From: an uncultured bacterium
GTDB taxonomy: Bacteria; Patescibacteriota; Minisyncoccia; Moranbacterales; UBA2206
Assembly (NCBI GenBank): GCA_903841185.1
Contig: CAIMIV010000003.1
Coordinates: 773 to 64,772, forward strand
Direction of reading: 5' to 3'
Length of the DNA: 64,000 nt
Shown here: positions 1 to 61,862 of the stretch, piece by piece
How positions within the stretch are numbered: the stretch's first letter is position 1
Layout of the letters: the number at the start of each line of letters is the position of its first letter
Notes under the pieces: model-generated
Databases searched by the model: none
Told to the model about the DNA's origin: nothing
What the model saw: the letters and a program-made list of their open reading frames with translations, nothing else
Translations under genes and position numbers: made by a program

Positions 1-308
1 ATTATTAGGCTACTACACCACAGCAACTTACTGTGTAATGGAAAACTACAAAATGCCATACATATACCAAATGTAAATATCATTGCTACAATAATATTCT
101 TTTTCATTACTTCTCTCCTTATTAGTTTTTTAACGAACTTAATTATTATTGTCTAAGATTTTGATTCCCCATTGGTTTCTCATCTTGACTATGTAGTATA
201 TCAGGTTTCGGCAGATTATGTGGAAGTAGGTGACAAAAAGATGGTTAAAATTGACAAATTATGGCTTATCTGATATACTAAAAGTGTTGAAATCTAATCC
301 ACAACAAT

Positions 309-1073
309 ATGATAAAAGACCTCTTAACGCAGCTCGATTTCTCTGAAAAGGAAACCCAAATCTATCTGGCGCTTTTAGAGATGGGTTCGACCAAGCCGAG
401 CGTGTTAGCCAAAAAAACCGGCCTTAATCGCACGACCGTCTATGATATCTGCGATCTTTTGATGCAAAAAGGACTAGTGAGTAAATATAAAAAAGGTGCT
501 GGTACGTTTTTCAATGCGCTGGACCCGAAGCAGTTGCTGAATTATTTGGATCGCGAGAAAGAAGAAAAAGCCAAGGCGATTGAAAAGCAAAAAGACAAAG
601 TGGCGGAACTTTTGCCCCAGCTTGTCTCGATGCAAGATATCTACGGTGCCAACAAGCCCAAGGTACAATTCTTTGAAGGGGAAAAGGGGATGCGCGAAGC
701 CTACGAAGACACGCTGACGAGCAAAGGTACTATTTTAGCCTACGCTAACGTGGAAACCGTGCACGAAGGTTTGCCCAACTTTTTCCCGGAATATTATAAA
801 CGCCGAGCAAAAAATAAGATTTTTATTCGGGCTATCTTTCCCGTAAATGCTCTTTCTATCGAGCGTTCCAAGCTCAATCAGGAAGAAATGCGGGACACGC
901 GCTTTTTGCCGGAAGGCAAGATGACTTTTTCTCCGGAAGTGAATATCTATAACAACAAAATGCTGGTTGCTTCCTGGAAAGAAAAAATCGCCATCATTAT
1001 CGAATCGAAAGAACTGGCGGATTTGCAAAAAATGACTTTCAACTTGTTATGGGACACCTTGCCGAAAAATTAA
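309..1073 (+). CDS. TrmB-family HTH transcriptional regulator, paralog P1
   Basis: N-terminal motif 'SEKETQIYLALLEMGSTKPSVLAKKTGLNRTTVYDICDLLMQKGLV' matches the TrmB winged-helix pattern. The C-terminal 'IAIIIESKELADLQKMTFNLLWDTL' box is shared with 4 other paralogs in this window. Confidence 0.7.
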   Translation: MIKDLLTQLDFSEKETQIYLALLEMGSTKPSVLAKKTGLNRTTVYDICDLLMQKGLVSKYKKGAGTFFNALDPKQLLNYLDREKEEKAKAIEKQKDKVAELLPQLVSMQDIYGANKPKVQFFEGEKGMREAYEDTLTSKGTILAYANVETVHEGLPNFFPEYYKRRAKNKIFIRAIFPVNALSIERSKLNQEEMRDTRFLPEGKMTFSPEVNIYNNKMLVASWKEKIAIIIESKELADLQKMTFNLLWDTLPKN

Positions 1074-3726: not shown

Positions 3727-4440
3727 TTATACCGCAATATCTCCGCCGAAATAGATATCTTTAATTTTTGTATTTTCCAAAATTTCCTTGCCGCCCTCCA
3801 GGGCAACTTCTCCGCTTTCTAAAACATACGTCCTGTCCGCTATCTCGATAGCCTGTTTCGCATTTTGTTCGACCATAAGAATAGCGATGCCTTCATTTCT
3901 GATTTCTTCAATCTTTGCAAAGATCTCTTTCATGGTCTTCGGGTCTAATCCCAGAGAGGGTTCGTCCATGAGCAGCAGCTGTGGATTTTGAATCAAGGCT
4001 CTTGCGATAGCTAGTAACTGCTGTTGCCCCCCGGACAGATTTCCCGCGAGCTCCCCCTGTTTGCTCTTGAGTATGGGGAATTTTTTAAAAACGTCGTTTA
4101 TATTTATTTCCGCCACTTTTTGGTCTGTAATTACAAAAGTGCCCATCTGCAGATTTTCCAAAACGGTCATGCTCGCAAAAACTTGCCGTCCTTGCGGAAC
4201 AAAGCTGATTCCGAGCTCAATTAACTCATGCGTCTTCAATTTGGTTATATCCTTGTCTTTGAAAAATATCTTACCCTCAAAAATATCAGCCAAACTGAAA
4301 ATACTCTTAAGGACTGTCGACTTGCCAGCCCCATTGGGTCCGATCAAGGCGACTATCTCGCCAGCGCCAACATTCAAATTGAGCTTGTGCAAAACCTCAA
4401 TGCCATTATAGCCAGCTTTTAAATTTTGTATTCTAATCAT
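3727..4440 (-). CDS. livF: Branched-chain amino acid ABC transporter ATP-binding protein (LivF-like)
   Basis: Walker A 'GPNGAGKST', 'LSGGQQQLLAIARAL', 'LLLMDEP'. The track start at 4497 is a TTG; the ATG at 4440 ('MIRIQNLKAGY') is the more likely start. Confidence 0.8.
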   Translation of the reverse strand: MIRIQNLKAGYNGIEVLHKLNLNVGAGEIVALIGPNGAGKSTVLKSIFSLADIFEGKIFFKDKDITKLKTHELIELGISFVPQGRQVFASMTVLENLQMGTFVITDQKVAEININDVFKKFPILKSKQGELAGNLSGGQQQLLAIARALIQNPQLLLMDEPSLGLDPKTMKEIFAKIEEIRNEGIAILMVEQNAKQAIEIADRTYVLESGEVALEGGKEILENTKIKDIYFGGDIAV

Positions 4441-4543
4441 ATATGCATATTTTACCACTAAAAAATTGAAGCGCCCATAGTAATATGGACGCTTCAATAA
4501 CGGAAAGGCCTAGGTTTGCTGTAGGGCTAACGATTAGTTAACG

Positions 4544-5695
4544 CTATTTTCCAGCATAGACTGGTGCCATTTTTTCCAGTTTGAATAATCTAATCAATAT
4601 TCCGTCTATGTTTCCGTCCTCTTTCATAGAGAGGTTTCCGGTTACGCCCTTATAATCTTTAACTTTTTGCAATAGATCAATTTTTTGGGCAATCCGTTTT
4701 TCTTTGGTTGTTCCGTTGACTTCAGGCAAAACTTTATTGATCAGTATATTTGCTGAATCGTAGGCCTGATCGCTTGCAACAAAGACATAGGGAGTGCGAC
4801 CAAATTTAGTTTTGAAATCCTGATAAAATTTGGTTGCTACCGGGTTTGTTTCAAGTGGGGCATAGAAAGAGAAATGAATCCCATTAATTGCGCCCTTGGA
4901 TGCTTCCTGGATTGACGGAGTTGTCGCAACAGTAGGAATGGTCAAGTATGGCTGATTCATATTTAAATCTTTTGCCTGCTTGATAGCAACTCCAATCTCA
5001 TCATATCCCAGGAACACAATCGCATCCTTATCTTTGAGCTTTAGCAAGGTTGTCTTAAAGTCATTTGTTTGTGCCGGATAACTTTCAACTTGAACGCTTG
5101 CGTTATTTCCCATTCTGGCTACAAATTCATCTGAAACGCTTTGCATAAAATTATCAACGGTGGAATGTACGATTCCGATATTTTTGTATCCTTTTTCTGT
5201 GGCATAGTCAGCTATAACATCAGCCAAATCTTTTGTTTCTTTGGCTATACAAAAGATATTATTACCAGTGTCGGCAAGGTCCTTGTCGCAATCAAGAGGA
5301 TCGATGATTAAGACATTGTCTTTTTTCGCTTTCTCAGCTACCGCCATAACTCCGCCGTAGGTAGACATGATAATTGTCTCAACTCCATCTACGTTTACTA
5401 GTTTCTCGTATGCGGTGACTGCTTTCGCTGTATCGTATTGATCATCTTCGGTTATCAATTTAATTGTTCTTCCATTTACTCCTCCCTTGGCGTTTGCTTG
5501 TTCAATAGCAATTTCCATTGAGCTAACTGCTTCCGTTCCCAGCACTGCCACGCCACCAGAAAGGGGTCCGATATAGCCGATCTTGATGGGCTCACTGGCT
5601 ACGGACTGTTGTTTGTTTTCTTGCGAAAACCATGCGAGACTTGCGATTAGAAGTAGGACTACTATTCCAATACCAACTTTCGTTGTTTTGTTCAT
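4544..5695 (-). CDS. livK: Branched-chain amino acid ABC transporter substrate-binding protein (LivJ/LivK family, PBP type 1)
   Basis: Signal/TM N-terminus, then 'IKIGYIGPLSGGVAVLGTE...ANAKGGVNGRTIKLITEDDQYD', typical of Leu/Ile/Val-binding proteins. Convergent with livG/livF. Confidence 0.75.
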   Translation of the reverse strand: MNKTTKVGIGIVVLLLIASLAWFSQENKQQSVASEPIKIGYIGPLSGGVAVLGTEAVSSMEIAIEQANAKGGVNGRTIKLITEDDQYDTAKAVTAYEKLVNVDGVETIIMSTYGGVMAVAEKAKKDNVLIIDPLDCDKDLADTGNNIFCIAKETKDLADVIADYATEKGYKNIGIVHSTVDNFMQSVSDEFVARMGNNASVQVESYPAQTNDFKTTLLKLKDKDAIVFLGYDEIGVAIKQAKDLNMNQPYLTIPTVATTPSIQEASKGAINGIHFSFYAPLETNPVATKFYQDFKTKFGRTPYVFVASDQAYDSANILINKVLPEVNGTTKEKRIAQKIDLLQKVKDYKGVTGNLSMKEDGNIDGILIRLFKLEKMAPVYAGK

Positions 5696-6009
5696 ACGAT
5701 TATTGCTTAAAAATTATTAACTACCAACATTATGCCGCATTGATGTTGCGGCTATTAATCTCCCAAGAACGGCTAAATTTGTGAGATGTTTTTCAAAGAA
5801 CTGGTGTCAGATGTTTTATCTCCGCTCTCATCTAGACTACGAATTATAGCACTTTTTTGGCAACTAGTCCATAGTTGACGACTAGAGCGGAATTATCGGC
5901 CAGTGGGCTATGTGATGTTTTGGCTTGTTACTTGCAATATTTGCTATGATATGCTACAATTTAGTTGTTGTCATAATTGGTGACAGTAACTAATAATAAC
6001 CGTAATTTT

Positions 6010-6750
6010 ATGCATATAGAAGAATTGATCAATGCTGGACTCAGTGAACATGAGGCCAAAGTCTATTTGGCGGCGCTGGAGTTGGGCGAAACCAGTGTTT
6101 ATCGCTTGGCCAAGAAATCTGGTGTCAAAAGGACTACCACCTATTTGGCGGTGGAATCTTTGAAGGGGAAAGGCTTGATCAGCGCTTTTCAGCGCAACAA
6201 CGTCACGCTTTGCTATGCGGAAAGCCCAAAGAAGTTGGCGGTGGCGCTGGAGGAAAAGAAAAAATCCCTAGACCGGATTATGCCGGAACTGTTGGCGTTT
6301 AATAATCTGATGGATAAAAAGCCTAAGATCAAATATTTTGAAGGGCGAGAGTCCTATAAAGAGGTTTTCGACGATGTCTTGAAATATCCTGGCACGGAAA
6401 TGCTGGCAACTTTCAATGAAAAGTTTTGGAATCGAGACAATTATTTTGTCGGCTATTTTATGCCGAAACGCAAAGAAAAGAAGATTTGGGCACGAGAACT
6501 GTTTCAGGATAGTCCGGAATTGCGAAATCTGAAAAACGAGGAACGGCTGCATTTTTTCCAAAGCAAGCTGGTGCCGGGAGATAAATTCAAAATTGAGATT
6601 GAAATGGTCATCTACGGGAACAACAAGGTAGGATTTGTTTCCTATGATGAAGAGATTGCGATTATTATTGAAAGTCAAAAAATCCATGATACGCAAAAAA
6701 GTTTTTTTGAAACGATCTGGAGCTTGTTGCCAGAGCACAAGAGTAAATAA
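6010..6750 (+). CDS. TrmB-family HTH transcriptional regulator, paralog P2
   Basis: 'LSEHEAKVYLAALELGETSVYRLAKKSGVKRTTTYLAVESLKGKGLI' plus the C-terminal 'IAIIIESQKIHDTQKSFFETIWSLL' box. The track start 5977 is a TTG; the ATG at 6010 is preferred. Confidence 0.7.
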   Translation: MHIEELINAGLSEHEAKVYLAALELGETSVYRLAKKSGVKRTTTYLAVESLKGKGLISAFQRNNVTLCYAESPKKLAVALEEKKKSLDRIMPELLAFNNLMDKKPKIKYFEGRESYKEVFDDVLKYPGTEMLATFNEKFWNRDNYFVGYFMPKRKEKKIWARELFQDSPELRNLKNEERLHFFQSKLVPGDKFKIEIEMVIYGNNKVGFVSYDEEIAIIIESQKIHDTQKSFFETIWSLLPEHKSK

Positions 6751-6771
6751 TCAAGTAACTGTTACTTAGAA

Positions 6772-7116
6772 ATGGATTATTTAAAATGGTTAAAAGAATT
6801 AGACAAAGAATCCGAGGGTAAGTATGTGGAAGCAGCTTGCCCGTATTTTGCGAATGGCAAATGCACAATTTATGCAGAAAGATTTGCTTGTTGCCGGAAT
6901 GTTCCGCAAAAAGAAGGGTATTGCTCTAAAAATAAAACTTGTCAGCTTGTAAAAGATGCTATTGAAAATAACACGCCCGCATCCAGCGAGGCTTGCGGTC
7001 AGTGCCGGAAAACGTGTTGCGAAAAGATCCTCGTGCCAGCGCAAGTGGAAATCACAAAAGAATTCATAGAAAAGTGGATGGACATCTCATGTTCCGATTG
7101 TCGGAAGTTTTTCTAA
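6772..7116 (+). CDS. Cys-rich YkgJ/UPF0153-like putative Fe/Zn-binding protein
   Basis: 'CPYFANGKCTIYAERFACCRNVP' resembles the 'CP..x..C.IY..RP..CR.FP' box of the YkgJ family. A second 'CGQCRKTCCEKI' CxxCxxxCC cluster follows. 14 Cys in 114 aa. Confidence 0.45.
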   Translation: MDYLKWLKELDKESEGKYVEAACPYFANGKCTIYAERFACCRNVPQKEGYCSKNKTCQLVKDAIENNTPASSEACGQCRKTCCEKILVPAQVEITKEFIEKWMDISCSDCRKFF

Positions 7117-7141
7117 ATAAAGTTGGTGGAAAAATAAAAAA

Positions 7142-7173
7142 AGCCAGGAACCGCGAGGGGTTACTGGCTTTTT
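7142..7173 (+). terminator. Terminator after the P2/Cys-rich gene pair (duplicated sequence family)
   Basis: AAAAAGCCAGGAACCGCGAGGGGTTACTGGCTTTTT. About 90% identical to the terminator at 8942..8976. Confidence 0.6.
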
Positions 7174-7180
7174 GAACATA

Positions 7181-7555
7181 CTACTCACTATTCTTTCCCT
7201 CTACATGAAAATTCCATCTTCCATATTTGCCACTACACACAATGGAATCTCCGTGCCAATTTTCTGCTGCCCCCCTCTCTACAATAATTGTTTCTTCCTG
7301 CTTGAATCTATTGATGTAGGTTTTTGTTACAACACACACTCCGTCTTTTTTATCATCTCCCATGTAATAAACGATGAATGTGACTCCAGTGCATGGCAGC
7401 ATGTGGTTAAATTCGTTAAATCGTTGCTTGTGCCAGTATAACTCACTTGAGGCTGCAAACCCGATTTCTGACATCATACCCTCTAAATGCCGTGCCTCTA
7501 TAAAACCGTTTCCGTAATACGAAGCATTACTTAAAACATATTGTTTTGTTTCCAT
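7181..7555 (-). CDS. Hypothetical protein
   Basis: 124-aa ORF with no recognisable motif. Lies between two TrmB cassettes. Confidence 0.35.
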   Translation of the reverse strand: METKQYVLSNASYYGNGFIEARHLEGMMSEIGFAASSELYWHKQRFNEFNHMLPCTGVTFIVYYMGDDKKDGVCVVTKTYINRFKQEETIIVERGAAENWHGDSIVCSGKYGRWNFHVEGKNSE

Positions 7556-7614
7556 GGCACTTCTCCTATTTAGGGTTTACCCATTGGTGGGTGATTGGTT
7601 TTTTGAATTAATGA

Positions 7615-7947
7615 TTAGAACATTGCTGTTGCCGTACCGTTAAAAATCACACATGAGGTTGTTGCTGATTTTGGATCCATCATGGCAATCCCTGCTGAGA
7701 TCATTATGCCATCGACAGTCCAATAATCTCCATTCCAGATCATCTCACATTTTTCGAAAAATTTATGATGGACTCTTTTCAATGTGATACCTCTTCTCAA
7801 TTCATCCTCATCCATGAAAACGGGGCAATCGTCTTCCACCCTCATTCTTGTCAGGAGGAAGCCTGTGGAAGTGTATAAATCCATGGGCGAGTTACTATCA
7901 TCCCCAATAACCATTGGGTCTTTACAACATGAGCATGTTAATAACAT
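7615..7947 (-). CDS. Hypothetical Cys-containing protein
   Basis: 110-aa ORF with 'CSCC' near the N-terminus and no recognisable family. Confidence 0.35.
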   Translation of the reverse strand: MLLTCSCCKDPMVIGDDSNSPMDLYTSTGFLLTRMRVEDDCPVFMDEDELRRGITLKRVHHKFFEKCEMIWNGDYWTVDGIMISAGIAMMDPKSATTSCVIFNGTATAMF

Positions 7948-8175
7948 AGCAGGTCTCCTTGGTATAGTTTGATATTGAGTTTTTAAAGATCTGGTGTCAT
8001 GAATCTTCTACTGAACTTATCATGACTACGTAGTATACACCAAAAACAACAAAAAGTCAACGATTGTAGCAAAATAAACAAATAACTATGTTTTGTGCGA
8101 CCTAATATTGACTGATATAAGGGAAATATGCTATAATAAAAATGTTGTCAAGAAATATAACAAAATGTTAAATAT

Positions 8176-8919
8176 ATGTTAAAAAAGGACTTAGAAGTCA
8201 TCGGATTGGACGATAGCGAGGCTAGCGCCTATTTGGCTTTGCTGGAATTGGACGAAGCCTCCATCGCGCAAATTGCCGCCAAAGCCAAACTAAAGCGACC
8301 GACCACCTACCTGATTGTGGAATCTCTGAAAGAAAAAGGTTTAGTGGGTATGGTCAAAAGAAAGAAAAAGACTTTGTTTCTGGCGGAAGACCCCAGAAAA
8401 ATTCTGGATATGCTGGAAGAACGCAAACAAAAGATGAATCGCATCATGCCGGAGCTGCTGTCGTTTGCCAATGTGTTGGATAAAAAACCAGGTATTCGTT
8501 ATTTCGAAGGTTGGGAAGGCATCAAGGATGTCTATCGTGACACCTTGAATTATCCCGAGCAAGAATTTCAGGCTTTTTTCTCGGAAGTTTTTTTGACGCG
8601 CTTTGACGAGAAGTTTTTTACCGAATTTTATTATGATCAGCGTCTGCAAAAAAGAATTTTCGTGCGGGCGATTTTGCCCGACAATGCCGACACACGCGAA
8701 TTGGTTACGCATGACCAAGCGCAACTGCGCAAATCAAAATTGGCACCAGTCGGCATGTTTCATATGAATATTGAAATCAACACCTACGGCAAAGACAAGG
8801 TGGGGATTATTTCTTTCGAAGAAGATTTCGCCCTAATCATCGAAAGTAAAAAAATTCACGACAGCCTCAAAAGTCTGTTCGAACTAACTTGGAGCTTGTT
8901 GCCGGAGAATAAAGGATAG
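8176..8919 (+). CDS. TrmB-family HTH transcriptional regulator, paralog P3
   Basis: 'DSEASAYLALLELDEASIAQIAAKAKLKRPTTYLIVESLKEKGLV' plus C-terminal 'FALIIESKKIHDSLKSLFELTWSLL'. Confidence 0.7.
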   Translation: MLKKDLEVIGLDDSEASAYLALLELDEASIAQIAAKAKLKRPTTYLIVESLKEKGLVGMVKRKKKTLFLAEDPRKILDMLEERKQKMNRIMPELLSFANVLDKKPGIRYFEGWEGIKDVYRDTLNYPEQEFQAFFSEVFLTRFDEKFFTEFYYDQRLQKRIFVRAILPDNADTRELVTHDQAQLRKSKLAPVGMFHMNIEINTYGKDKVGIISFEEDFALIIESKKIHDSLKSLFELTWSLLPENKG

Positions 8920-8941
8920 TCATTAACAATTGGAAAAATAA

Positions 8942-8976
8942 AAAAGCCATGAACCGCGAAGGGTTGCTGGTTTTTT
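8942..8976. terminator. Terminator after P3 (also serves convergent rarA)
   Basis: AAAAAGCCATGAACCGCGAAGGGTTGCTGGTTTTTT. A paralog of 7142..7173. Confidence 0.6.
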
Positions 8977-8994: not shown

Positions 8995-10173
8995 TTATAA
9001 GTATTTCTTATTATTGAGTTCGTCTGGCAGATAGGCTTGGTCTGCGCTATTTTCAATAGGCGTATATTTATAGCCCTTGCCATAGTCCAAAGCTTTCATC
9101 AGCTTGGTGGGGGCATTGCGCAAATGGAGAGGCACCGGCAAATTGCCGAATTTTTCCACATCTTGTTTAGCTTTGTTATAGACGCTGTAGGCCGTGATGT
9201 CCTTTTTGGATTTGGCCAGATAGATGACGCAGTGAGCCAGGTGGACATTGCATTCCGGGTAGCCGAGCTTGTGGCAGGCGTCAAAGGTGGCGTTGGCCAG
9301 GAGCAGGGCACTGTTATTGGCTAGACCGATGTCTTCGGAAGCGAAACGCACCAGGCGCCGCGCAATAAATAGCGGGTCCTCGCCGCCTTCCACCATCCGC
9401 GCCAGCCAATAGACAGCGGCATCCGGATTGCCGCCGCGCATGGACTTGTGGAGGGCGGAAATGATATTGTAATGTTCCTCACCGGACTTGTCATAGAGCA
9501 GATGCGATTTTTGCAACACCTCATGGATGAGTTCGGGCGTGATGGGGCGCGCTTGGTTGACGCAGGCTTCCAGGGTGTTGAGCGCCATACGCGCGTCACC
9601 ATTAGAGAGATTAGCCAGTAGCTTGATGGTGTCATCGGACAAAACTATTTTTTTGGAGGAGCTTATTTTGGAAACGGCGCGGCGGATAATTTTTTCCAAA
9701 TCAACGGCGGAAAGTTTTTGCAAAACAAAAACCCGGGTGCGGGAAACAAGCGCCGAATTGACTTCGAAACTGGGATTTTCCGTAGTGGCTCCGATGAGAA
9801 TAAGTGTCCCGTCTTCGACATAGGGCAGAAGGGCGTCTTGCTGGGCTTTGTTCCAGCGGTGGATTTCATCAATAAAAAGAATGGTTTTCAATTGCGTGAG
9901 TTGATTTTCTTTGGCTTGGGCAATAATTTCCAAAAGGATTTTTTTGCCGGAGGAGACGGCGCTGATTTTGAGGAAGGCCGAATGGGTGGTGCGAGCAATG
10001 ATATGAGCGAGAGTGGTTTTGCCGGAACCTGGCGGCCCCCACAAAATCATAGATGGCAACTGATCTTCTTGGATAGCGCGAAAAAGATAGGAATTTTTTC
10101 CAACTATTTTTTCTTGGCCAAAAAAATCGCTCAGATTTTCGGGGCGGATAAGTTCGGGGAGAGGTGTTGACAT
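8995..10173 (-). CDS. rarA: Replication-associated recombination protein A (AAA+ ATPase RarA/MgsA)
   Basis: 'ILWGPPGSGKTTLA' Walker A, 'ILFIDEIHRWNKAQQDALLPYVEDG', C-terminal MgsA helical domain. Confidence 0.85.
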   Translation of the reverse strand: MSTPLPELIRPENLSDFFGQEKIVGKNSYLFRAIQEDQLPSMILWGPPGSGKTTLAHIIARTTHSAFLKISAVSSGKKILLEIIAQAKENQLTQLKTILFIDEIHRWNKAQQDALLPYVEDGTLILIGATTENPSFEVNSALVSRTRVFVLQKLSAVDLEKIIRRAVSKISSSKKIVLSDDTIKLLANLSNGDARMALNTLEACVNQARPITPELIHEVLQKSHLLYDKSGEEHYNIISALHKSMRGGNPDAAVYWLARMVEGGEDPLFIARRLVRFASEDIGLANNSALLLANATFDACHKLGYPECNVHLAHCVIYLAKSKKDITAYSVYNKAKQDVEKFGNLPVPLHLRNAPTKLMKALDYGKGYKYTPIENSADQAYLPDELNNKKYL

Positions 10174-13840: not shown

Positions 13841-14503
13841 ATGAAAATAAAAGAGGAAAAAAATAAAGCATTTGATCTCCGGAGGGAGGGCAAGAGCTAC
13901 AGGCAAATAGCAGAGCTTTTGGATATAAGTAAAAGTACGTTATCTGGTTGGTTTAGGGATGTTGATTGGTCTCAAGATATCAAAAAACAGTTAATTGAAA
14001 AGTCAAAAGGGGCTAGTCGAAAAAGATTGCTTCAGCTAAATGATCTGAAAAAGAAAAGATGGAGCGAATGTTATGTAAGAGCAGAAAAAGAGGCAATTAC
14101 TGAATTTGAAAATTTAAAAAAAGACAAATTGTTTATAGCGGGCATGGCATTATATTGGGGAGAGGGAGATAAAATATGGAAGAATGGCATTATTAGAATA
14201 TCCAATACAGATGAAAAGATGTTGCGAGTGTTTAATGAATTTTTACAAAAAATTTGCAAGGTGGAGAGAGAAAAAATTAGAGCGGGAATTTTACTGTATC
14301 CAGACTTGGATTCGGAGGAGCGCTTGAAATTTTGGAGTGAAAGTATTAGAATATCTAAGGAGAGGTTTTTTAAATCGACTGTGATACAGGGAAGGCATAA
14401 AACTAAAAAAACAGGCAGCGGAGTGTGTATTGTTTCAGTAGGTGATAAATATTTGAAAAAGAAGTTATTGACTTGGCTAGATTTGTTCATTGGAGAATTT
14501 TAA
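13841..14503 (+). CDS. HTH-domain protein with LAGLIDADG-like core (possible free-standing homing-endonuclease-like gene)
   Basis: N-terminal 'GKSYRQIAELLDISKSTLSGW' HTH; central 'LFIAGMALYWGEGDK' resembles a LAGLIDADG motif. Sits between the tRNA-Phe/Val and tRNA-Gly genes. Confidence 0.4.
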   Translation: MKIKEEKNKAFDLRREGKSYRQIAELLDISKSTLSGWFRDVDWSQDIKKQLIEKSKGASRKRLLQLNDLKKKRWSECYVRAEKEAITEFENLKKDKLFIAGMALYWGEGDKIWKNGIIRISNTDEKMLRVFNEFLQKICKVEREKIRAGILLYPDLDSEERLKFWSESIRISKERFFKSTVIQGRHKTKKTGSGVCIVSVGDKYLKKKLLTWLDLFIGEF

Positions 14504-14506
14504 CAA

Positions 14507-14578
14507 GCGGGTATAGTATAATGGTTATTACATCAGGTTGCCAATCTGGATACGGGGGTTCGATTCCCCCTACCCGCT
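14507..14578 (+). tRNA. tRNA-Gly (anticodon GCC)
   Basis: Acceptor GCGGGTA/TACCCGC, anticodon loop TTGCCAA, T-arm GGGGG-TTCGATT-CCCCC. Confidence 0.85.
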
Positions 14579-14585
14579 CAAAGTT

Positions 14586-14616
14586 AAAAAGTTCTAGGTT
14601 TAGCCTAGAACTTTTT
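14586..14616 (+). terminator. Rho-independent terminator after tRNA-Gly(GCC)
   Basis: AAAAAGTTCTAGG-tttag-CCTAGAACTTTTT. Confidence 0.7.
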
Positions 14617-14625
14617 GATTTGCTA

Positions 14626-14667
14626 GCGGGATGGGGAATCGAACGGGTAGGAATGAGACAATCCCGC
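14626..14667 (-). pseudogene. Decayed antisense tRNA-like remnant
   Basis: Minus strand reads GCGGGAT...CCCG-TTCGATT-CCCC-ATCCCGC: paired 7-nt ends and a T-loop but a non-pairing T-stem. The same 20-nt core GGGATGGGGAATCGAACGGG recurs at 46641. Confidence 0.4.
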
Positions 14668-20291: not shown

Positions 20292-20320
20292 TTGACAAGA
20301 TTGGCGTTTCTTGCTATACT
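20292..20320 (+). promoter_or_regulatory. Sigma70-like promoter of the 3D-domain gene
   Basis: TTGACA - 17 nt - TATACT. Confidence 0.5.
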
Positions 20321-20408
20321 CTTTGGTCATGCTGAAAACTTGTTTAGAACCAGTTTCGGCAGGGCTAACTAAGAATTAACAACCCCAGCACCATGGGCGA
20401 CTGCGCCC

Positions 20409-21044
20409 ATGACTACCAATTATCAAGAATTTGCGCCGTTGGCTCGATTCATGATGCGGGGTGAACAATTAATGCGTATCATTAGTCTATTTGTGGCCCT
20501 ACCGATACTGTGGGCAACCTTTATGCCTCAATATAAGGCATTGGCGTCAGAAGTAACAATTGCTGATGAAACAAAAATAAATTTTGAAATACAAGAGCAT
20601 ATGAGTATAGCTGATGGGATTATCCATCTAGCGCAACTCGACATCCCAATGATGGTTCCTGTTGATGAGCCAGTGAAAAGTGAAGAGGAGTTGAAAAGAG
20701 AAAAGGTGTTGGCTGTTTGGAAGACGAAGCAGTTGTCTAAATGGGAAAATCTTCCGAAAGGACAATTCACTATCAATGCCTCTGCCTATACGGCTGCTGC
20801 TGATGAATGCGGTTGGAATACCGGAATCACGGCTAGCGGTTTGCAGGTAAAAGAAAACAGAACCATCGCTTGTCCTCCCGAATATCCTTTTGGGGCCAAG
20901 ATAAAAATTGAGGGTTATGGATTGTTCGTTTGTGAAGATCGTGGAGGTGCTATCAAAAAAAATCATGTGGACATTTATATGAAAACCAAGCAAGAAGCCT
21001 TTGCTTTCGGTCGCAGAAATTTGTTGGCAGAAATTACTATCTAA
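20409..21044 (+). CDS. 3D-domain (MltA-like/RlpA-like) cell-wall-associated protein
   Basis: 'NASAYTAAADECGWNTGITASG...GGAIKKNHVDIY' matches the three-Asp 3D/DPBB domain. N-terminal TM. Confidence 0.65.
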   Translation: MTTNYQEFAPLARFMMRGEQLMRIISLFVALPILWATFMPQYKALASEVTIADETKINFEIQEHMSIADGIIHLAQLDIPMMVPVDEPVKSEEELKREKVLAVWKTKQLSKWENLPKGQFTINASAYTAAADECGWNTGITASGLQVKENRTIACPPEYPFGAKIKIEGYGLFVCEDRGGAIKKNHVDIYMKTKQEAFAFGRRNLLAEITI

Positions 21045-22154: not shown

Positions 22155-22256
22155 ATAACCAAATAAATTTCAAATTCCAATCACTAAAAGTTTGAATATT
22201 GTAATTTGATAATTGGGCATTGTTTGATGTTTGTTTCTTGGTGATTGGTTATTTCA
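22155..22256 (+). repeat. Approximately 100-nt intergenic repeat, copy 1
   Basis: Starts ATAACCAAATAA and contains TTGAATATTGTAATTTG and TTGTTTGATGTTTGTTTCTTGGTGATTGGTTATTT. Near-identical to 41665..41775. Confidence 0.6.
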
Positions 22257-22794
22257 GACTGTGTATTCGAACTAGTTCAAATTTATCGCTCTCCGTGTGC
22301 CAGATGGCAAAGGTCGGGGGATAGAAATCCCCGGTGACGTTGCCCGGGTTAAGGAGCGTGCACTGGCCGACAACTTCGGTCCAAGGTTTGTGGGTATGGC
22401 CATAGAAAACAAAGTCATATTTCTCGGATTCGGCTAGTTGTTTCGCTTCTTGGGGAAAATGCACAAAAGCGACTTCCTTCTTGTCGATATTCGCTTCGCC
22501 ATGATTTTTGAAAAGGTGGGCATTTTTATACGTGGGCACAAACTCAAAATCTCTTAAGTGGTCGTTATCCATATTGCCAAAAGTATAGAAAATCTCTCCG
22601 GCAAAATGGTCGCACATAAAATCAAGCGTTTCAGCATCCGCCAAGTCACCGCAACAAATCAATGCCGCAATTTTTTCTCGCGCGCAAAAATCCAAAACTT
22701 TTTTCAAGTTCACTTCGTTATTGTGCACGTCGGAGATAATTGCTACTTTTCCGCCAGGGGCGGATACGCCTATGGCGGACATATTTTTTTTCAT
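22249..22794 (-). CDS. YfcE/MJ0936-family metallophosphoesterase
   Basis: 'IISDVHNN', 'CCGDL', 'GNMD', 'YGHTH' calcineurin-like phosphoesterase motifs. Confidence 0.75.
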   Translation of the reverse strand: MKKNMSAIGVSAPGGKVAIISDVHNNEVNLKKVLDFCAREKIAALICCGDLADAETLDFMCDHFAGEIFYTFGNMDNDHLRDFEFVPTYKNAHLFKNHGEANIDKKEVAFVHFPQEAKQLAESEKYDFVFYGHTHKPWTEVVGQCTLLNPGNVTGDFYPPTFAIWHTESDKFELVRIHSLK

Positions 22795-23476: not shown

Positions 23477-24223
23477 TTATTCCTTTGATTCGGACAAATT
23501 TTTCCAAAGAAGTTCAAAAATCATTTTCATTGTATTGTGAACTTCAGAACTTTCAATGATAGTTCCCATGATTTCCTTGCCGGATATCAGGGATACTTTA
23601 GAGCCGCCATAAATATCAATCCCGATTGAAAAAGGATACTCTTCTTGATTAATGAATTTCATTGATCGGAGTTCGGATGTATTTTTTTGGAAAAGTATTT
23701 TTTCGAAATATTGGGTGGTTGGTGTGATAGCACGAACATGAATATTTTTTTTAACCCTGCTTTGTATAAACTGTTCCATCCATTCGTAACCTAATGCACT
23801 AACAGTGTCCTCTGAGGCAAAAGTCGTATATTCTTCTCCTTCGTAGTTCAATTTATCGTTGTAGATCTCTTGTATCCCGGTAAGACCTTCATAGTAGGAA
23901 ACGCTAACTTTTCCGATATCTTTTTTTTGAATAGCCATCAATTCCGGGAGCATTTCCTTAGCTTCATTTAGTTTTTCTTGGAAAAGTTTGAGGCATTCGG
24001 TCGGTGATTTCGCAACATAGAGAGTTTTCTTGTTTTGAGGAATCTTCAAAACAAAACCTTTTTGTACAAGGTTTTCAAGAATCACATAGGCTGTGGCTTT
24101 TTTGAGGCCACTTTTTTGATGTATTAAATAGGCAGTAGCTTTTTTGAAAGAAAGAAGGCTGATGTAGACCGTGGCCTCTTTTTCAGTAAAACCAATGCCA
24201 ATAAGAGTGCTAATCATTTCCAT
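23477..24223 (-). CDS. TrmB-family HTH transcriptional regulator, paralog P4
   Basis: 'FTEKEATVYISLLSFKKATAYLIHQKSGLKKATAYVILENLVQKGFV' plus C-terminal 'GTIIESSEVHNTMKMIFELLW'. Start moved to the 'MEMISTLIG' ATG at 24223, which has a TTGACC-17-TATAAT promoter in front. Confidence 0.65.
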   Translation of the reverse strand: MEMISTLIGIGFTEKEATVYISLLSFKKATAYLIHQKSGLKKATAYVILENLVQKGFVLKIPQNKKTLYVAKSPTECLKLFQEKLNEAKEMLPELMAIQKKDIGKVSVSYYEGLTGIQEIYNDKLNYEGEEYTTFASEDTVSALGYEWMEQFIQSRVKKNIHVRAITPTTQYFEKILFQKNTSELRSMKFINQEEYPFSIGIDIYGGSKVSLISGKEIMGTIIESSEVHNTMKMIFELLWKNLSESKE

Positions 24224-24229
24224 GAACAC

Positions 24230-24258
24230 ATTATAGCACTGTATTGGTGTATGGTCAA
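24230..24258 (-). promoter_or_regulatory. Promoter of TrmB paralog P4
   Basis: Minus strand reads TTGACC - 17 nt - TATAAT - 6 nt - ATG. The -35 lies within TTGTTCGTCAtaaatatTGACCA, a degenerate version of the TTGTCA-N7-TGACAA inverted repeat seen at the other paralogs. Confidence 0.5.
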
Positions 24259-24428
24259 TATTTATGACGAACAATAGTTATTTTATATAAAAGACTTATA
24301 ATTAGCCAAGATATTGATATCACGGGGTATATTATAATTGACCTTTTTGCTAATTTGTGATAGGATTGTATGTTCAGATAGAAATAGGTCTATTTGAAAA
24401 GTACTTTAACAAAACAAGAGGTGAGATT

Positions 24429-25547
24429 ATGACGCAAGTCCCTTATCAACATGGTTTGCAGAGAATAAATACCGGTGGATTACAATCTCTTTGGATGGAG
24501 ACGCCAGGCTATTGCAATTTAGCTTGTCCTTATTGCTTCGCATGTGGCGGGGAGCCACTTCGGACGGAAGAGCTGCTTACTTTCGAGGACATTGAAAAAA
24601 TTCTGGTTGAGGCCAAAAAAATGGGAATGGACGTTTTCGGTATTCCCGGGGCTGGCGAGCCATTGCTTCCAATTAATAGAGAACTCACGATGCGAATTAT
24701 TCGTAAGTGCGCAGAGTTGCAAGTCTTTGTGGCATTGTTCACCACCGGAGAATTTATCACCCCTGATTTGGCGGCGGAGCTGTATGCACTGCCGGTAGAA
24801 ATTTTACTTAAATGCAATTCCTTTAATCCTGAGCTGCAAGATGCGTTTGTTTCTGATGCAAGTCGGGGGCGGATTATTCATGGTTTTGGAGATAAAAGGA
24901 ACAGAACATTGGAGCTACTTATGCAAGTCGGCTTTAATGATGAGACCGCTTGCATGAAAGATTTCGGGCGTAAATCTCGGCTGGCGCTTGTTACATCAAT
25001 AATGACCGATGAAAAGTGTTTATCTAACTTGGATGAGATCGTGAGTATTTTTCGTTTTTGTCGAGAGCATAATATTATTTTTGATTGTGACAGTGTCTTA
25101 AAAAGAGGTCGGGGAGCTTCTTGTAATCTGCACACACAAGATGAGCTTTACCGAGATAAGTTGCTTGAGCTACAAAAGATAGACCGGGAGGAATATGGCA
25201 ATGACTGGAATATAACGCAGTCATATGCGGGTGGCCCAGCTTGTGATCGATACGCGCATCATTTGTACGTTACGCAATATGGGGAAATTTTTCCTTGCAT
25301 TGGCGCGACAGGGGTAAAATTGGGGAATATTTGTGACGTTTCTTTGCAACAGGCCTGGGAAAGTAGGGAGATGCAGATTATACACGCTCGTCAATATGGC
25401 GGGAAATGTGGCAAAGAATGTGCCAATTTCGCTGAAGGCAAATGTAATCCATGTCTTGGGCGACGGACGGTGAATCTCACCAATGAGTTTTTACTTACTA
25501 ATGGTTATGTGGAAACGATTGGTTGTTGGAATTTTCGAAAAAAATAA
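24429..25547 (+). CDS. Radical SAM enzyme with C-terminal SPASM/twitch Cys-rich domain
   Basis: 'CNLACPYC' CxxxCxxC with a following GGE, a C-terminal cluster 'CIGATG...C...C..C..C..C', and RBS GAGGTGA 7 nt upstream of the ATG at 24429. Confidence 0.7.
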   Translation: MTQVPYQHGLQRINTGGLQSLWMETPGYCNLACPYCFACGGEPLRTEELLTFEDIEKILVEAKKMGMDVFGIPGAGEPLLPINRELTMRIIRKCAELQVFVALFTTGEFITPDLAAELYALPVEILLKCNSFNPELQDAFVSDASRGRIIHGFGDKRNRTLELLMQVGFNDETACMKDFGRKSRLALVTSIMTDEKCLSNLDEIVSIFRFCREHNIIFDCDSVLKRGRGASCNLHTQDELYRDKLLELQKIDREEYGNDWNITQSYAGGPACDRYAHHLYVTQYGEIFPCIGATGVKLGNICDVSLQQAWESREMQIIHARQYGGKCGKECANFAEGKCNPCLGRRTVNLTNEFLLTNGYVETIGCWNFRKK

Positions 25548-41664: not shown

Positions 41665-41775
41665 ATAACCAAATAATATACAATGACTAAAATTCAAATT
41701 ACAAACAATTGATTATTGAAAGATTGAATATTGGAATTTGTTTGATGTTTGTTTCTTGGTTATTGGTGATTTAAT
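41665..41775 (+). repeat. Approximately 100-nt intergenic repeat, copy 2 (directly upstream of clpP)
   Basis: ATAACCAAATAA...TTGAATATTGGAATTTGTTTGATGTTTGTTTCTTGGTTATTGGTGATTT. Matches 22155..22256 over ~90 nt. Confidence 0.6.
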
Positions 41776-41779
41776 TATT

Positions 41780-42376
41780 ATGGAAAATACAACTAACAAT
41801 CAGTACTTAATTCCGACAGTAATTGAGAAAACCAGCTATGGTGAACGAGCGTATGATATCTACTCCCGACTACTCAAAGACAGGATTATCTTTTTGAGCG
41901 GTCCGATTGATGACGGAGTGGCTAATAGCATTATTGCGCAACTGCTTTTTCTGGATTCACAATCGAATAAAGAAGATATCAAAATCTATATTAATTCACC
42001 AGGTGGTCAGGTGACGGCTGCTTTGGCCATTTACGATACGATGCAATATGTGAAAGCTGATGTTTCCACAATTTGCATCGGGCTAGCGGCTTCTGCAGCT
42101 GCCTTGCTGCTAACTGGCGGAGTCAATGGCAAACGGATGATTTTGCCTAATGGGGAAGTGTTGATTCATCAAGTTATGGGCGGTGCTCAGGGCCAGGCTA
42201 CTGACATGATGATTCATACGGAACATATTCTGCGCACGAAAAAAAGACTGAATGAGATTATGGCCAAGCACACCGGGCAACTCGTAACCAAAATTGCTCA
42301 AGACACCGACCGGGATTATTTTATGACAGGGGAGGAAGCGAAAAAGTATGGCATTGTGGATAAAATTATCAAATAG
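41780..42376 (+). CDS. clpP: ATP-dependent Clp protease proteolytic subunit
   Basis: '[11 protein letters not shown]', catalytic '[11 protein letters not shown]' Ser box, 'HQVMGG' His box. Start set at MENTTNN (in frame with the 41738 track ORF). Confidence 0.9.
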
Positions 42377-46412: not shown

Positions 46413-46518
46413 CAAATGGACAATTTTGAATTTATAATTTTGAAGGAATTTCGAAATTAAAAATTATAGCATTAGGATTTGATTTAAAATTCGAAATTGG
46501 AAATTTAAAATTGAAACA

Positions 46519-46590
46519 AGCGGGTGTCGTATAGTGGCTATTATATCAGCCTTCCAAGCTGAGGAGGGGGGTTCGATTCCCCCTACCCGC
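46519..46590 (+). tRNA. tRNA-Gly (anticodon TCC)
   Basis: Acceptor GCGGGTG/TACCCGC (G-U), anticodon loop CTTCCAA, T-arm GGGGG-TTCGATT-CCCCC. Confidence 0.85.
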
Positions 46591-46596
46591 TCAAAA

Positions 46597-46628
46597 TTTA
46601 AAAATCCCTAGGTTTATCCTAGGGATTT
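46597..46628 (+). terminator. Rho-independent terminator after tRNA-Gly(TCC)
   Basis: AAAAATCCCTAGG-tttat-CCTAGGGATTTTT. Same architecture as the terminator at 14586. Confidence 0.7.
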
Positions 46629-46640
46629 TTATTTTATTAG

Positions 46641-46660
46641 AGGGATGGGGAATCGAACGG
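46641..46660 (-). pseudogene. Decayed antisense tRNA-like remnant (paralog of 14626..14667)
   Basis: GGGATGGGGAATCGAACGGG is identical to the core at 14631. No intact acceptor partner. Confidence 0.35.
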
Positions 46661-46751
46661 GCCACGTCGCTCGCGAGTAATGCCAAGTCCTCGCTTGAGT
46701 TTATGGATAAATTACGTTAGAATAGTAAAATAAATAAGGAATATTTTTCAC

Positions 46752-59910: not shown

Positions 59911-60258
59911 TTATTTACAGGGATTAGATAGCTTTCTTCTAATTATCCCATGTGATTTTTCAGTACTTGTCTCAAAATTCCTTTTGCTTATATAGCAAGC
60001 TGGATTCGAGATGGTTTTATTAGAAATTTCAGTAGTAAATCCGACTACGTTCGAATAATTGCACCACCCCTCATCCCATTCACGCATACCTACGTCATCT
60101 ATATCGATAATAAGCATATGTGGATTAAAGGATTCTAAGTGTATCTGTAATGGAGCTTGGCAAGAATAATTTTTAATTATTCTGATTTCATCATGCGTTG
60201 GATTAAAGACGCTTGATATATAAGCGGAGCGGGGGCTTTTTAAGATTGAAATTCTCAT
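59911..60258 (-). CDS. Hypothetical protein
   Basis: 115-aa ORF divergent from TrmB paralog P5. No motif. Confidence 0.3.
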   Translation of the reverse strand: MRISILKSPRSAYISSVFNPTHDEIRIIKNYSCQAPLQIHLESFNPHMLIIDIDDVGMREWDEGWCNYSNVVGFTTEISNKTISNPACYISKRNFETSTEKSHGIIRRKLSNPCK

Positions 60259-60423
60259 GACAATTCTCCTTGAATAGTGTTTTTTAAAGGACTGTTGTTA
60301 AGTGAATAAATCAGCTTAACAACGTAGTATATCAGAAAATAGAGGTCTTGTCACGCTAGGACAACTAATATGTTGGGATGCGCGTAAAGTTGCTAAATAT
60401 TTGCTTTATCCTAGCCACCGTGC

Positions 60424-60455
60424 TATAATAAAAGTGTTGTCATTTACAATGACAA
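60424..60455 (+). promoter_or_regulatory. -10 box plus operator-like inverted repeat upstream of TrmB paralog P5
   Basis: TATAAT (60424) followed by AAAAGTGTTGTCA-tttacaa-TGACAA (inverted repeat 60437..60455). Near-identical GCTATAATAAAARTGTTGTCA occurs at 8130..8150 (P3). GTTGTCA-taattgg-TGACAG at 5967..5986 (P2). Confidence 0.5.
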
Positions 60456-60467
60456 GAATGAAAGTGT

Positions 60468-61199
60468 ATGTTACATAGGCAATTACAAGACGCTGGATTG
60501 AACGAAACTGAGGCGAAAATCTATCTCGCTTCTTTGGAGTTGGGGCAGACTTCCGTCAGTCGCATTGCCAAAAAAGCTGGCATTAAGCGCACAACGGTTT
60601 ATTTGTCACTGGAAAACTTAATGCAAAAAGGTTTGGTGAGTGCTATTAAAAAAGAGGGCAAAAGTCACTATTATGCTGAAGATCCACGGAATTTGGAGCG
60701 AATAATGGTGGAAAAGAAAGAACGAATTAGTAAAGTGATTCCGGAATTGTTGGCCTTTACTAATTTAATTGATAGAAAGCCTGAAATTCGTTATTTTGAA
60801 GGTGACGAAGGCATTAAGGAAGTTTTAATGAATGCGCTGATTAATGCTGATGGGGAAATTTTGACAATGTATTCTGAATCTTATATAAATGATTTTGATG
60901 AGAAATTTTTTTCTGAATATTATGTTCCTGAGAGAATCAGGCGAAGAATCTCTGCTCGAGCACTTCTACCAGACAATAATCAGATGAGAGAACTCGCAAT
61001 GACTAATGAGATATCTTTGCGTAAAACACGATTTGTATTCGCAGACTTGTTCAAAATCAAGATCGAAGTAATGATATACGATAGAGACAAACTGAGCATT
61101 ATTTCATATAAGGAAAAATTCGCCCTAATTATAGAAAGCCCGGCCATTCATGACAGTTTCAAGAGTATTTTTGAAACGATGTGGGCTGGGGCGAAGTAA
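60468..61199 (+). CDS. TrmB-family HTH transcriptional regulator, paralog P5
   Basis: 'LNETEAKIYLASLELGQTSVSRIAKKAGIKRTTVYLSLENLMQKGLV' plus C-terminal 'FALIIESPAIHDSFKSIFETMWAGA'. Confidence 0.7.
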   Translation: MLHRQLQDAGLNETEAKIYLASLELGQTSVSRIAKKAGIKRTTVYLSLENLMQKGLVSAIKKEGKSHYYAEDPRNLERIMVEKKERISKVIPELLAFTNLIDRKPEIRYFEGDEGIKEVLMNALINADGEILTMYSESYINDFDEKFFSEYYVPERIRRRISARALLPDNNQMRELAMTNEISLRKTRFVFADLFKIKIEVMIYDRDKLSIISYKEKFALIIESPAIHDSFKSIFETMWAGAK

Positions 61200-61804: not shown

Positions 61805-61862
61805 GGCTGAAAAAAATTTCTTATTGCCTTTTTTATGTCTAAGTTGACAGTATAATTTTATA

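Follow-up and report, generated by a model that had tools for sequence, protein, structure and literature searches.

The DNA analysed here (the window) is a stretch of 64,000 nucleotides (nt) from an uncultured bacterium of the Patescibacteriota (Moranbacterales, UBA2206), positions 773 to 64,772 of the forward strand of contig CAIMIV010000003.1 in assembly GCA_903841185.1, with a G+C content of ~40% and with tRNA, ribosomal-type and Candidate Phyla Radiation (CPR)-like genes. As the initial annotation had recognised, it carries five full-length genes for TrmB-family regulators, named P1 to P5 in coordinate order, and besides these there is a sixth relative without helix-turn-helix (HTH). The annotation had credited only P1 with a cargo, a view that had to be given up, since each of the five stands back to back with a divergently transcribed neighbour, here called the cargo, from a common intergenic region; the livK-livF pair is the divergent cargo of P2. 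In what follows, site A denotes the candidate operator at the regulator's own promoter, site B the candidate operator at the cargo -35, and the leader module the cargo -10 together with the 5' leader behind it. The features are:

105-1073: P1 unit (covariance model, promoter scan, Pfam)
105-107, minus strand: start codon (ATG) of the P1 cargo, a small secreted-type protein running off the left end of the window
127-200, minus strand: P1 leader module (covariance model)
309-1073, plus strand: P1, TrmB-family regulator (PF01978)
3727-4497, minus strand: second gene of the P2 cargo, a livF-type ATP-binding cassette (ABC) ATPase, next after livK
4544-5695, minus strand: P2 cargo, LivK-type substrate-binding protein (Peripla_BP_6, E 1e-48)
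5790-5848, minus strand: P2 leader module of the livK transcript (covariance model, 50.1 bits), with -10 TATAAT at 5843-5848, 5' stem-loop at ~5804-5837 and tail CAGTTCTTTGAAAA at 5790-5803
5864-5885: P2 site B, palindrome CTAGTC-N10-GACTAG over the cargo -35, candidate operator (ortholog conservation)
5932-5985, plus strand: P2 own promoter with site A TGTCATAATTGGTGACA (5969-5985), candidate auto-operator (promoter scan, exact TGWCA-N7-TGWCA)
6010-6750, plus strand: P2, TrmB-family regulator, 246 amino acids (aa) (PF01978 E 5e-13; orthologs 72-87%; ATG start kept in orthologs)
6772-7116, plus strand: CxxCxxCC-domain gene, co-directional with P2 (PF03692 E 3e-4, below cutoff)
7131-7173: bidirectional intrinsic terminator of a repeated family (AGCCAGGAACCGCGAnGGGTTnCTGG), folding at -20.0 (plus) and -17.6 (minus) kcal/mol, z -4.5 and -5.1
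7181-7947, minus strand: P3 cargo operon, 7615-7947 (110 aa) and 7181-7555 (124 aa), divergent from P3
7980-8060, minus strand: P3 cargo promoter TTGACT (8055-8060)-17-TATACT (8032-8037) and leader with tail CAGATCTTTAAAAA (scan; covariance model, 57.3 bits)
8108-8162, plus strand: P3 own promoter (promoter scan) with site A TGTCAAGAAATATAACA (8146-8162; 9/10 positions)
8176-8919, plus strand: P3, TrmB-family regulator, 247 aa (PF01978 E 8e-14; AlphaFold2 predicted local distance difference test (pLDDT) 83.5; best solved-structure match TrmBL2)
8934-8976: second copy of the bidirectional terminator, between P3 and a convergent MgsA/RarA-type ATPase gene (8995-10173, minus strand)
23477-24431: P4 unit, with own promoter and site at 24230-24269 (Pfam)
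23477-24223, minus strand: P4, TrmB-family regulator (PF01978)
24338-24366, plus strand: P4 cargo promoter TTGACC-17-TAGGAT, followed by a diverged leader hairpin and tail at 24375-24415
24429, plus strand: probable start of the P4 cargo, a radical SAM/SPASM enzyme
59911-61199: P5 unit, with cargo 59911-60258 (minus strand) and leader module 60281-60331 (minus strand)
60348-60454: P5 control sites, namely palindrome TTGTC-N7-GACAA (60348-60364), own -10 (60421-60429) and site A (60438-60454)
60468-61199, plus strand: P5, TrmB-family regulator (PF01978)
61238-61804, minus strand: the HTH-less relative, 188 aa, coiled-coil helix and C-terminal domain (hhalign against the family alignment)

P1-P5 belong to a large, Patescibacteria-wide family of ~245-aa regulators. 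The TrmB winged HTH (PF01978) scores above its gathering threshold in all five proteins (49-59 bits against a cutoff of 25.6; E 5e-13 to 3e-16), and P3 has 401 homologs in a protein database clustered at 90%, from Moranbacteria, Kaiserbacteria, Parcubacteria and others, whose source names, where given, are 'TrmB family' or 'helix-turn-helix'. Profile searches returned 355 relatives in GTDB species genomes (one genome per species) and, at E<=1e-30, 1,865 clusters at 50% identity. For comparison, 80 loci (numbered L001, L085 etc.), which are relatives' stretches around TrmB-like genes, were kept from one-genome-per-species GTDB contigs; the alignment of the five paralogs was too divergent to serve as locus query. 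Multiple copies per genome are seen among these loci. Because the loci are mutually related and were chosen around TrmB genes, counts over them are not independent.

The predicted architecture of the family, judged from the AlphaFold2 model of P3, is that of archaeal TrmBL2, with a winged helix, a coiled-coil helix and a phospholipase D (PLD)-like C-terminal domain. In a Foldseek search, the whole chain of the model could be aligned with TrmBL2 (E 8e-13, 253-276 columns), with a template modelling (TM) score of only 0.37-0.43, because the domain orientations differ. It also matches the TrmB structure 3qph, and its C-terminal domain resembles both PLD-like F13 and, over 135 columns (root-mean-square deviation 4.4), the first subdomain of the sugar-binding domain of TrmB (2f5t). 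A long helix (residues 73-100), along which the pLDDT falls to 48-65, lies where the coiled coil of TrmB sits; in the TrmB family, an amphipathic coiled-coil helix following the winged HTH mediates dimerisation (PMC4158304). By sequence the family fails all curated archaeal equivalogs: the TrmBL2 equivalog NF041141 of NCBIfam scores 17.9 bits against a cutoff of 530, with the HTH part alone aligned, and the Pfam scan gave no match to the TrmB effector-binding domain PF11495 at E<=0.01. A phmmer search of the PDB gave an E of 0.026.

The likeness to TrmBL2 of the Thermococcales (PDB 5bpd, 5bpi, 5bqt, 5box) extends to the length class (~250-264 aa) and to the single PLD-like C-terminal domain without the second sugar-binding subdomain, while the sequence identity is only ~14%. 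TrmBL2 is an abundant chromatin protein of low specificity (PMC3031468; PMC4877046), acting as a single chromatin protein and global repressor (PMC3031468). If the window proteins were likewise nucleoid or chromatin proteins with little sequence specificity, the intergenic motifs described below would serve other factors; that the nearest solved structure is such a protein speaks for this and counts against a role as local repressors, and several copies in a small genome would also fit. By contrast, the window family is bacterial, multi-copy and locus-specific, with subtype-specific candidate palindromes that occupy fixed positions in each paralog's own promoter and are conserved among orthologs, and local regulators are typically paired as strictly with a divergent gene. 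Together with the score on the curated TrmBL2 model, this makes a chromatin role highly doubtful, and P1-P5 are probably divergent, autoregulated local regulators of the TrmB family.

The start of P4 is probably the ATG at 24221-24223, whereas the TTG at 24274 proposed by the ORF (open reading frame) finder is unlikely as a start. This ATG lies only 6 nt beyond the -10 TGCTATAAT of P4 (24221-24238, minus strand), so that the P4 mRNA may be leaderless. The HTH-less ORF 61238-61804 has no Pfam match and aligns with family columns 101-263, corresponding to P3 residues 79-241 (hhalign probability 93%, E 3e-7). It is convergent with P5 and could be a decayed copy or a partner in non-DNA-binding heterodimers.

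Upstream of the regulators, the initial annotation had described two recurrent boxes, which it took for the operator and promoter of the TrmB genes themselves. The first of its sequences, TTTTNAAAGANCTGGTGTCA, does recur in the window upstream of P2, P3 and P5, at 5790, 7980 and 60281 (the last with 3 mismatches), one position away from where it had been placed; three copies stand against 0.07 expected, and none of 100 shuffles reached three. The second, GACTACGTAGTATA, occurs at 187, 5835, 8024 and 60318 (rather than 60322), a count that is unremarkable by itself (4 versus 1.73 expected), with all four copies on the same strand, 122-175 nt upstream of P1, P2, P3 and P5. The assignment to the TrmB genes did not survive, since the boxes read on the other strand as a cargo -10 and 5' leader, and each TrmB gene has a separate, nearer promoter. 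On the cargo strand GACTACGTAGTATA becomes TATACT or TATAAT followed by ACGTAGTC, and by its letters it is the -10 (TATACT) of a back-to-back promoter for the divergent cargo gene. TTTTNAAAGANCTGGTGTCA, which reads TGACACCAGnTCTTTnAAAA on that strand and whose first bases pair with those directly past the -10, is on the same grounds the predicted 3' arm of a stem-loop with which the cargo mRNA begins, joined to a conserved tail. The palindrome ACTACGTAGT, highlighted earlier within the second box, is not kept across the family and is present only in the P2 and P3 types, which rules it out as a functional unit.

An independent scan with the promoter consensus found TTGACT-17-TATACT (8060-8032), TGGACT-17-TATAAT (5871-5843) and TCCACA-18-TATACT (224-195) on the cargo strand. 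In the leaders the arms of the stem are GTCATGA/TCATGAC for P3, GTTGTTAAG/CTTAACAAC for P5 and GTC(T)AGATG/CATCTGAC for P2. The cargo side of P4 (24361-24415) carries a diverged module, in which TTGACC-17-TAGGAT is followed by the hairpin CAGATAGA/TCTATTTG and the tail AAAAGTACTTTAAC. The same scan placed the regulators' own promoters nearer to each gene, at 251-279 for P1 (TTGACA-17-TATACT), 8108-8137 for P3 (TTGACT-18-TATAAT) and 5932-5960 for P2 (TTGCAA-17-TACAAT), all three TG-extended at the -10; those of P1 and P3 are its top sites (11/12 positions).

The two-way arrangement is widespread, as a minus-strand ORF of >=75 aa starts 150-400 nt upstream in 60 of 79 loci. A hidden Markov model seeded by the four window copies and iterated with nhmmer placed the module upstream of 37 of the 80 loci, in addition to those four copies. 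A covariance model was built from 31 distinct leaders, the four window copies included; in the 64-kb window it returned only these four, all of them training sequences, with the next match at E=1, and over loci and window together it gave 46 matches, upstream of 41/80 anchor TrmB-like genes across Patescibacteria. Of the 14 matches outside the training set, 11 adjoin a divergently oriented TrmB-like gene on its upstream side (in seven cases an extra paralog inside the same locus), and another one stands before a homolog of the radical SAM cargo seen in the window. A weak match at 20315-20382 (plus strand; 17.8 bits, E=1) has TATACT and GTCATGCTGAAAA and lies upstream of ORF 20409-21044, with no adjoining TrmB-like gene. 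With Rfam 15 at the gathering threshold, the whole window gave tRNAs only, and the control-region leader had no match.

The stem of the leader is supported by pairing in 68.8% of cells, compared with 26-49% when the partners are slid, and by a covariation score of 0.249, which none of 500 shuffles attained (maximum 0.118). In 24 of 31 leaders the cargo-sense RNA gives the more stable fold of the two strands (-10.6 versus -8.0 kcal/mol), and in the alignment fitted to the model G-U pairs outnumber A-C mismatches by 44 to 24. The eight inner pairs, which would begin at the predicted +1, form much more often than the three outer ones, and the spacing of the arms varies from ~12 to >30 nt at a fixed distance from the -10. 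Pairing, covariation, strand-biased folding, the G-U bias and the variable arm spacing, taken together, favour an RNA hairpin at the extreme 5' end of the cargo mRNA. The same inverted repeat could instead be a DNA operator for the regulator, lying across the transcription start, without any RNA structure. At +1 it would occupy the classic position of a repressor, as the counterpart of site A beside the regulator gene; TGTCA/TGAC-like half-sites are present in the arms of the P2 and P3 types, and the 5' arm and the GATGA after it are conserved in sequence as well as in distance from the -10. A fixed dimer is hard to square with arms set so variably apart, however, and the excess of G-U, the better folding of the cargo-sense strand and the poor pairing of the three outermost pairs, whose place would be upstream of the predicted start, also argue against a DNA site. 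We regard it as unlikely, though it deserves to be kept in view, and retain the hairpin. The G(A/C)TGA right after the 5' arm (columns 17-21 of the leader alignment; 8017-8021 in P3, 5828-5832 in P2, 60311-60315 in P5 and 180-184 in P1) is almost invariant whatever pairs with the arm, and the hairpin model leaves it unexplained.

Other roles for the leader were rejected. An intrinsic attenuator is ruled out by the AU-rich stems and by a short U-run at a distance of 6-8 nt, while true terminators of this genome are GC-rich with an immediate U-run. A leader peptide from the conserved ATGA is likewise excluded, because it would begin ~12 nt past the -10, without ribosome-binding site and without a conserved frame. 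Recombination sites of the attC, REP or IS200 hairpin type are eliminated by the wrong order of core sites, an unconserved GTAG and the lack of a recombinase domain among the scanned proteins: the leader arms GTTAAG...CTTAAC have the reverse of the order in integron attC sites (RYYYAAC...GTTRRRY), and no recombinase domain turned up in Pfam scans of 16 window ORFs and 60 cargo ORFs of the loci.

At the regulators' own promoters, exact matches to TGWCA-N7-TGWCA occur twice in 64 kb (0.21 expected), in both cases between the -10 and the start codon, of P2 and of P5. Site A scores >=8/10 in 58 of 85 upstream regions, ~50 of these lying <=~40 nt from the start codon, and its half-site variants are subtype-specific and track the orthologous groups. 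At the cargo promoter, most loci have a second half-site, GTCAA- or GACTA-like, 12 bp beyond the -35 TTGACA (read as TGTCAA on the opposite strand). Seven P2 orthologs (72-87% identity) keep sites A and B, both -10 elements and the 5' arm of the hairpin invariant while the spacers vary, and TAGTCnAT...GACT at site B is unchanged in 7/7 P2-type orthologous intergenic regions. From this conservation we infer that the regulator binds the predicted sites A and B and represses both promoters. A further motif, TGGCTTA, recurs throughout the family at the regulators' own promoters, either just upstream or inside the spacer; it is found at 260-275 and 5920-5935 and in most loci (e.g. L018, L013, L011), and among P2 orthologs it is invariant. 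At 61836-61868, between the HTH-less ORF and an NYN-domain gene (61863-62426), TGTCT/TGACA/TGTCA half-sites (TGTCTAAGTTGACAGTATAATTTTATAGTGTCA) may mark a further target of a regulator.

The paralogs are old. Within the window, P1-P5 share 31-47% protein identity in pairwise comparison (coding DNA 56-62%), whereas the best orthologs in other genomes reach 86% for P1, 87% for P2, 94% for P3 and 68% for P5; P4 is the exception, without an ortholog in the range of 66-94%. Since ortholog identities far exceed those among the window's own copies, the duplications must be ancient, and the shared motifs appear to be kept by function rather than by recency. The initial annotation had proposed a recently duplicating cassette of upstream module, promoter/operator, TrmB gene and terminator, with the boxes as the operator and promoter of the TrmB genes. 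Its modular part stands, in that a control region and a terminator are common to the units and relatives hold one to three of them; the motifs, moreover, recur only upstream of paralogs, the terminators are 86% identical, paralogs are tandem or close together in 16/80 loci, and the number of units at the P2-P3 site differs among relatives. Recency does not stand: the orthologs of P1, P2, P3 and P5 are 66-94% identical elsewhere, which argues against the window paralogs grouping apart from the copies of other genomes; the same module is found in other lineages of Patescibacteria; and the boxes belong to the opposite strand, each TrmB gene having its closer promoter. Recent duplication is thus very improbable.

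By contrast to the regulator, the cargo changes. Seven P2 orthologs face seven unrelated cargos and P3 orthologs at least four different genes, and DNA homology with relatives starts at the edge of the module, at 5791 (L059), 5778 (L071), 7973 (L001) and 7980 (L003). Some cargos, conversely, have changed less than their regulators. In Campbellbacteria and Wolfebacteria, TrmB-like genes with only 44-49% identity to P2 have cargos that match livK at 70-72% (a ~70% livK homolog is the divergent cargo in L047 and L053), and a radical SAM cargo with 66% identity to that of the window belongs to a regulator sharing 31% with P4. Across the loci, cargos include receiver domains, binding proteins, methyltransferases, radical SAM enzymes and PEP (phosphoenolpyruvate)-utilising enzymes, most being without Pfam match. 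These comparisons of sequence and gene order support a conserved unit of regulator plus two-way control region with an exchangeable cargo. In L047 (Campbellbacteria CP011215, 1150-5700), livK, a divergent control region, a TrmB-like gene, livH, livM and livG follow in this order; LivK is 70% identical to that of the window and LivH, LivM and LivG only 41-46%, which suggests separate histories of the binding protein and permease genes. In the window, a promoter-like TTGTTA-16-TATAAT (1128-1155), TG-extended, lies between P1 and livH, so that the permease genes may have their own promoter besides read-through from P1.

In a stronger version of this, regulator and control region, up to and including the leader stem-loop, would be a portable 'regulated expression slot', into which new genes are inserted again and again at a defined junction, the leader edge, as a recombinase-free analogue of gene-cassette capture in ultra-small bacteria; the TrmBL2-like protein itself might then recognise the leader hairpin as RNA or single-stranded DNA, TrmBL2 having been reported to bind double- and single-stranded DNA (PMC4877046). 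We hold this version to be improbable.

In the explanation that we consider probable, though well short of certain, ancient TrmB-type paralogs sit in two-way units in which a repressor acts on both promoters and a leader hairpin marks the mRNA of an exchangeable cargo. The regulator would be transcribed from its own sigma-70 promoter, with a TG-extended -10 followed by the TGWCA-N7-TGWCA site across the predicted transcription start. The cargo would use a second sigma-70 promoter (TTGACA-17-TATACT), ~110-130 bp away and in the opposite direction, whose -35 is overlapped by a second, similar site. Occupied by a dimer of the regulator, the two sites would keep the regulator gene and the cargo repressed until the C-terminal domain receives a signal. 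The cargo mRNA would begin with a stem-loop from ~5 nt past the -10, followed by the tail CAGUUCUUUnAAAA and the ribosome-binding site; the 5'-terminal stem-loop would act on this mRNA, most likely by protecting it against 5'-end-dependent decay, and the pyrimidine-rich tail may affect translation as well. Cargo genes would be replaced at the leader edge while the regulator and the control region through the leader are conserved, and the region from P1 to gene 10289 would be a hotspot in which the number of units differs among related genomes, with copies of one bidirectional terminator at the unit borders. DNA binding at these sites, repression, ligand control and the role of the hairpin are all inferred here.

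Besides the nearness of TrmBL2, several observations weigh against this explanation. Single hairpins are weak (-7 to -11 kcal/mol; z -0.2 for P2 and -1.5 for P1), with the P3 leader folding at -10.7 kcal/mol (z -2.7). RNAalifold found no consensus structure in the MAFFT alignment of the leaders, because variation in loop length misaligns the 3' arms, and the count of named structures and the covariance model were used in its place. The 5' arm and the following GATGA are conserved as sequence beyond pairing, as would also suit a protein-binding DNA site. Complementarity between the tail and the Shine-Dalgarno sequence is slight (-4.4 versus -3.1 kcal/mol) and enters the minimum free energy structure of only 8/34 leaders, a weak signal that leaves an anti-ribosome-binding-site role of the tail as a minor possibility. 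Site B varies by subfamily, with GTC-N10-GAC in the P2 type and GTCAA-N7-GTCAA in others. Finally, the transcription starts are predicted from promoter geometry alone, and picking related loci around TrmB genes tilts the counts towards association.

The system shares features with several known ones. With the sugar-sensing TrmB/TrmBL1 (Tgr) regulators of Thermococcales and Haloarchaea it has in common the PF01978 domain, a C-terminal domain resembling the first subdomain of the TrmB effector domain (3qph, 2f5t), palindromic operators over promoter elements (here candidate sites) and an ABC transporter as neighbour (the mal operon in the case of TrmB, livK in that of P2, whose control by P2 would be analogous), and the predicted long helix may correspond to their coiled-coil dimerisation helix; autoregulation has been proposed for Tgr (PMC4158304). 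The window family differs in having no PF11495 match, in being ~90 residues shorter and in the use of sigma-70 rather than archaeal promoters. Divergons of the LysR type or of TetR/TetA also have back-to-back promoters, where common operator sites let one protein control itself and its neighbour, and many paralogs per genome, each with its own target. There, the protein fold is different; here, the target mRNA carries a 5' stem-loop and tail conserved across the family, and orthologous regulators pair with unrelated targets, which would be unusual for ligand-matched LysR or TetR pairs. Stabilising stem-loops at the 5' end of bacterial mRNAs are known from the leaders of ompA, aprE and ermC. 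In these, as here, the hairpin is at or a few nt from the transcript 5' end; in the window family, by contrast, the element is conserved family-wide and tied to one regulator family, and its stabilising role is putative.

Patescibacteria have tiny genomes with few recognisable regulators, and gene control in them is almost uncharted; our literature search found nothing connecting TrmB with Patescibacteria or the CPR, and a paper on horizontal gene transfer in Patescibacteria omits the family. In a family of this size, with five or six copies in 64 kb, two promoters, a conserved mRNA leader and a pair of candidate operators make up a legible wiring diagram and thereby a direct experimental handle. 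That the control region is kept while the controlled gene is swapped suggests that a few sensor-promoter units are reused for varied accessory genes, among them transporter binding proteins, radical SAM enzymes, receiver-domain proteins and many orphans.

Comparison of gene orders shows the stretch between P2 and P3 to be variable, a hotspot of rearrangement with members of a bidirectional terminator family at its borders. The terminators at 7131-7173 and 8934-8976 are identical at 37/43 positions; on both strands each has a folding energy of -12 to -20 kcal/mol and a U-run after the stem. These properties mark them as bidirectional intrinsic terminators between convergent genes. The initial annotation had described ~90%-identical terminators following P2 and P3. 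The similarity of the pair is borne out, but the first comes after the CxxCxxCC gene and not directly after P2, and the two are members of a dispersed family, whose sequence recurs at non-homologous positions in L001, L027 and L045. Five metagenome contigs contain it as well, with seven copies in all, and in four of them there is a TrmB-like gene or the control region of one; as these contigs are close relatives of the window's organism, the association is not independent. The three small genes between P2 and P3, reported earlier, are real ORFs; 7181c and 7615c have no Pfam or NCBIfam match, and in L085 orthologs of this P3 cargo pair (88% and 86%) are syntenic with P3. Relatives hold one, two or three units at the site. 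In L059 and L071, the ortholog of window gene 10289 comes directly after that of P2. The order in L001 is P1, terminator, a different cargo, P3, CxxCxxCC gene, terminator and MgsA-type ATPase, and in L085 terminator, 7181c, 7615c, P3, CxxCxxCC gene, terminator, another TrmB-like gene and 10289, so that in both the CxxCxxCC homolog follows the ortholog of P3 and not of P2.

Two further repeats were seen in the window. A tRNA gene with the hairpin that follows it and the start of the next tRNA is duplicated at 14496-14647 and 46509-46661, 32 kb apart and with 81-82% identity. A 49-nt direct repeat (86% identical) occurs at two unrelated places, 22206-22254, at the 3' end of ORF 22249-22794 (minus strand), and 41724-41772, at the start of ORF 41738-42376 (plus strand).

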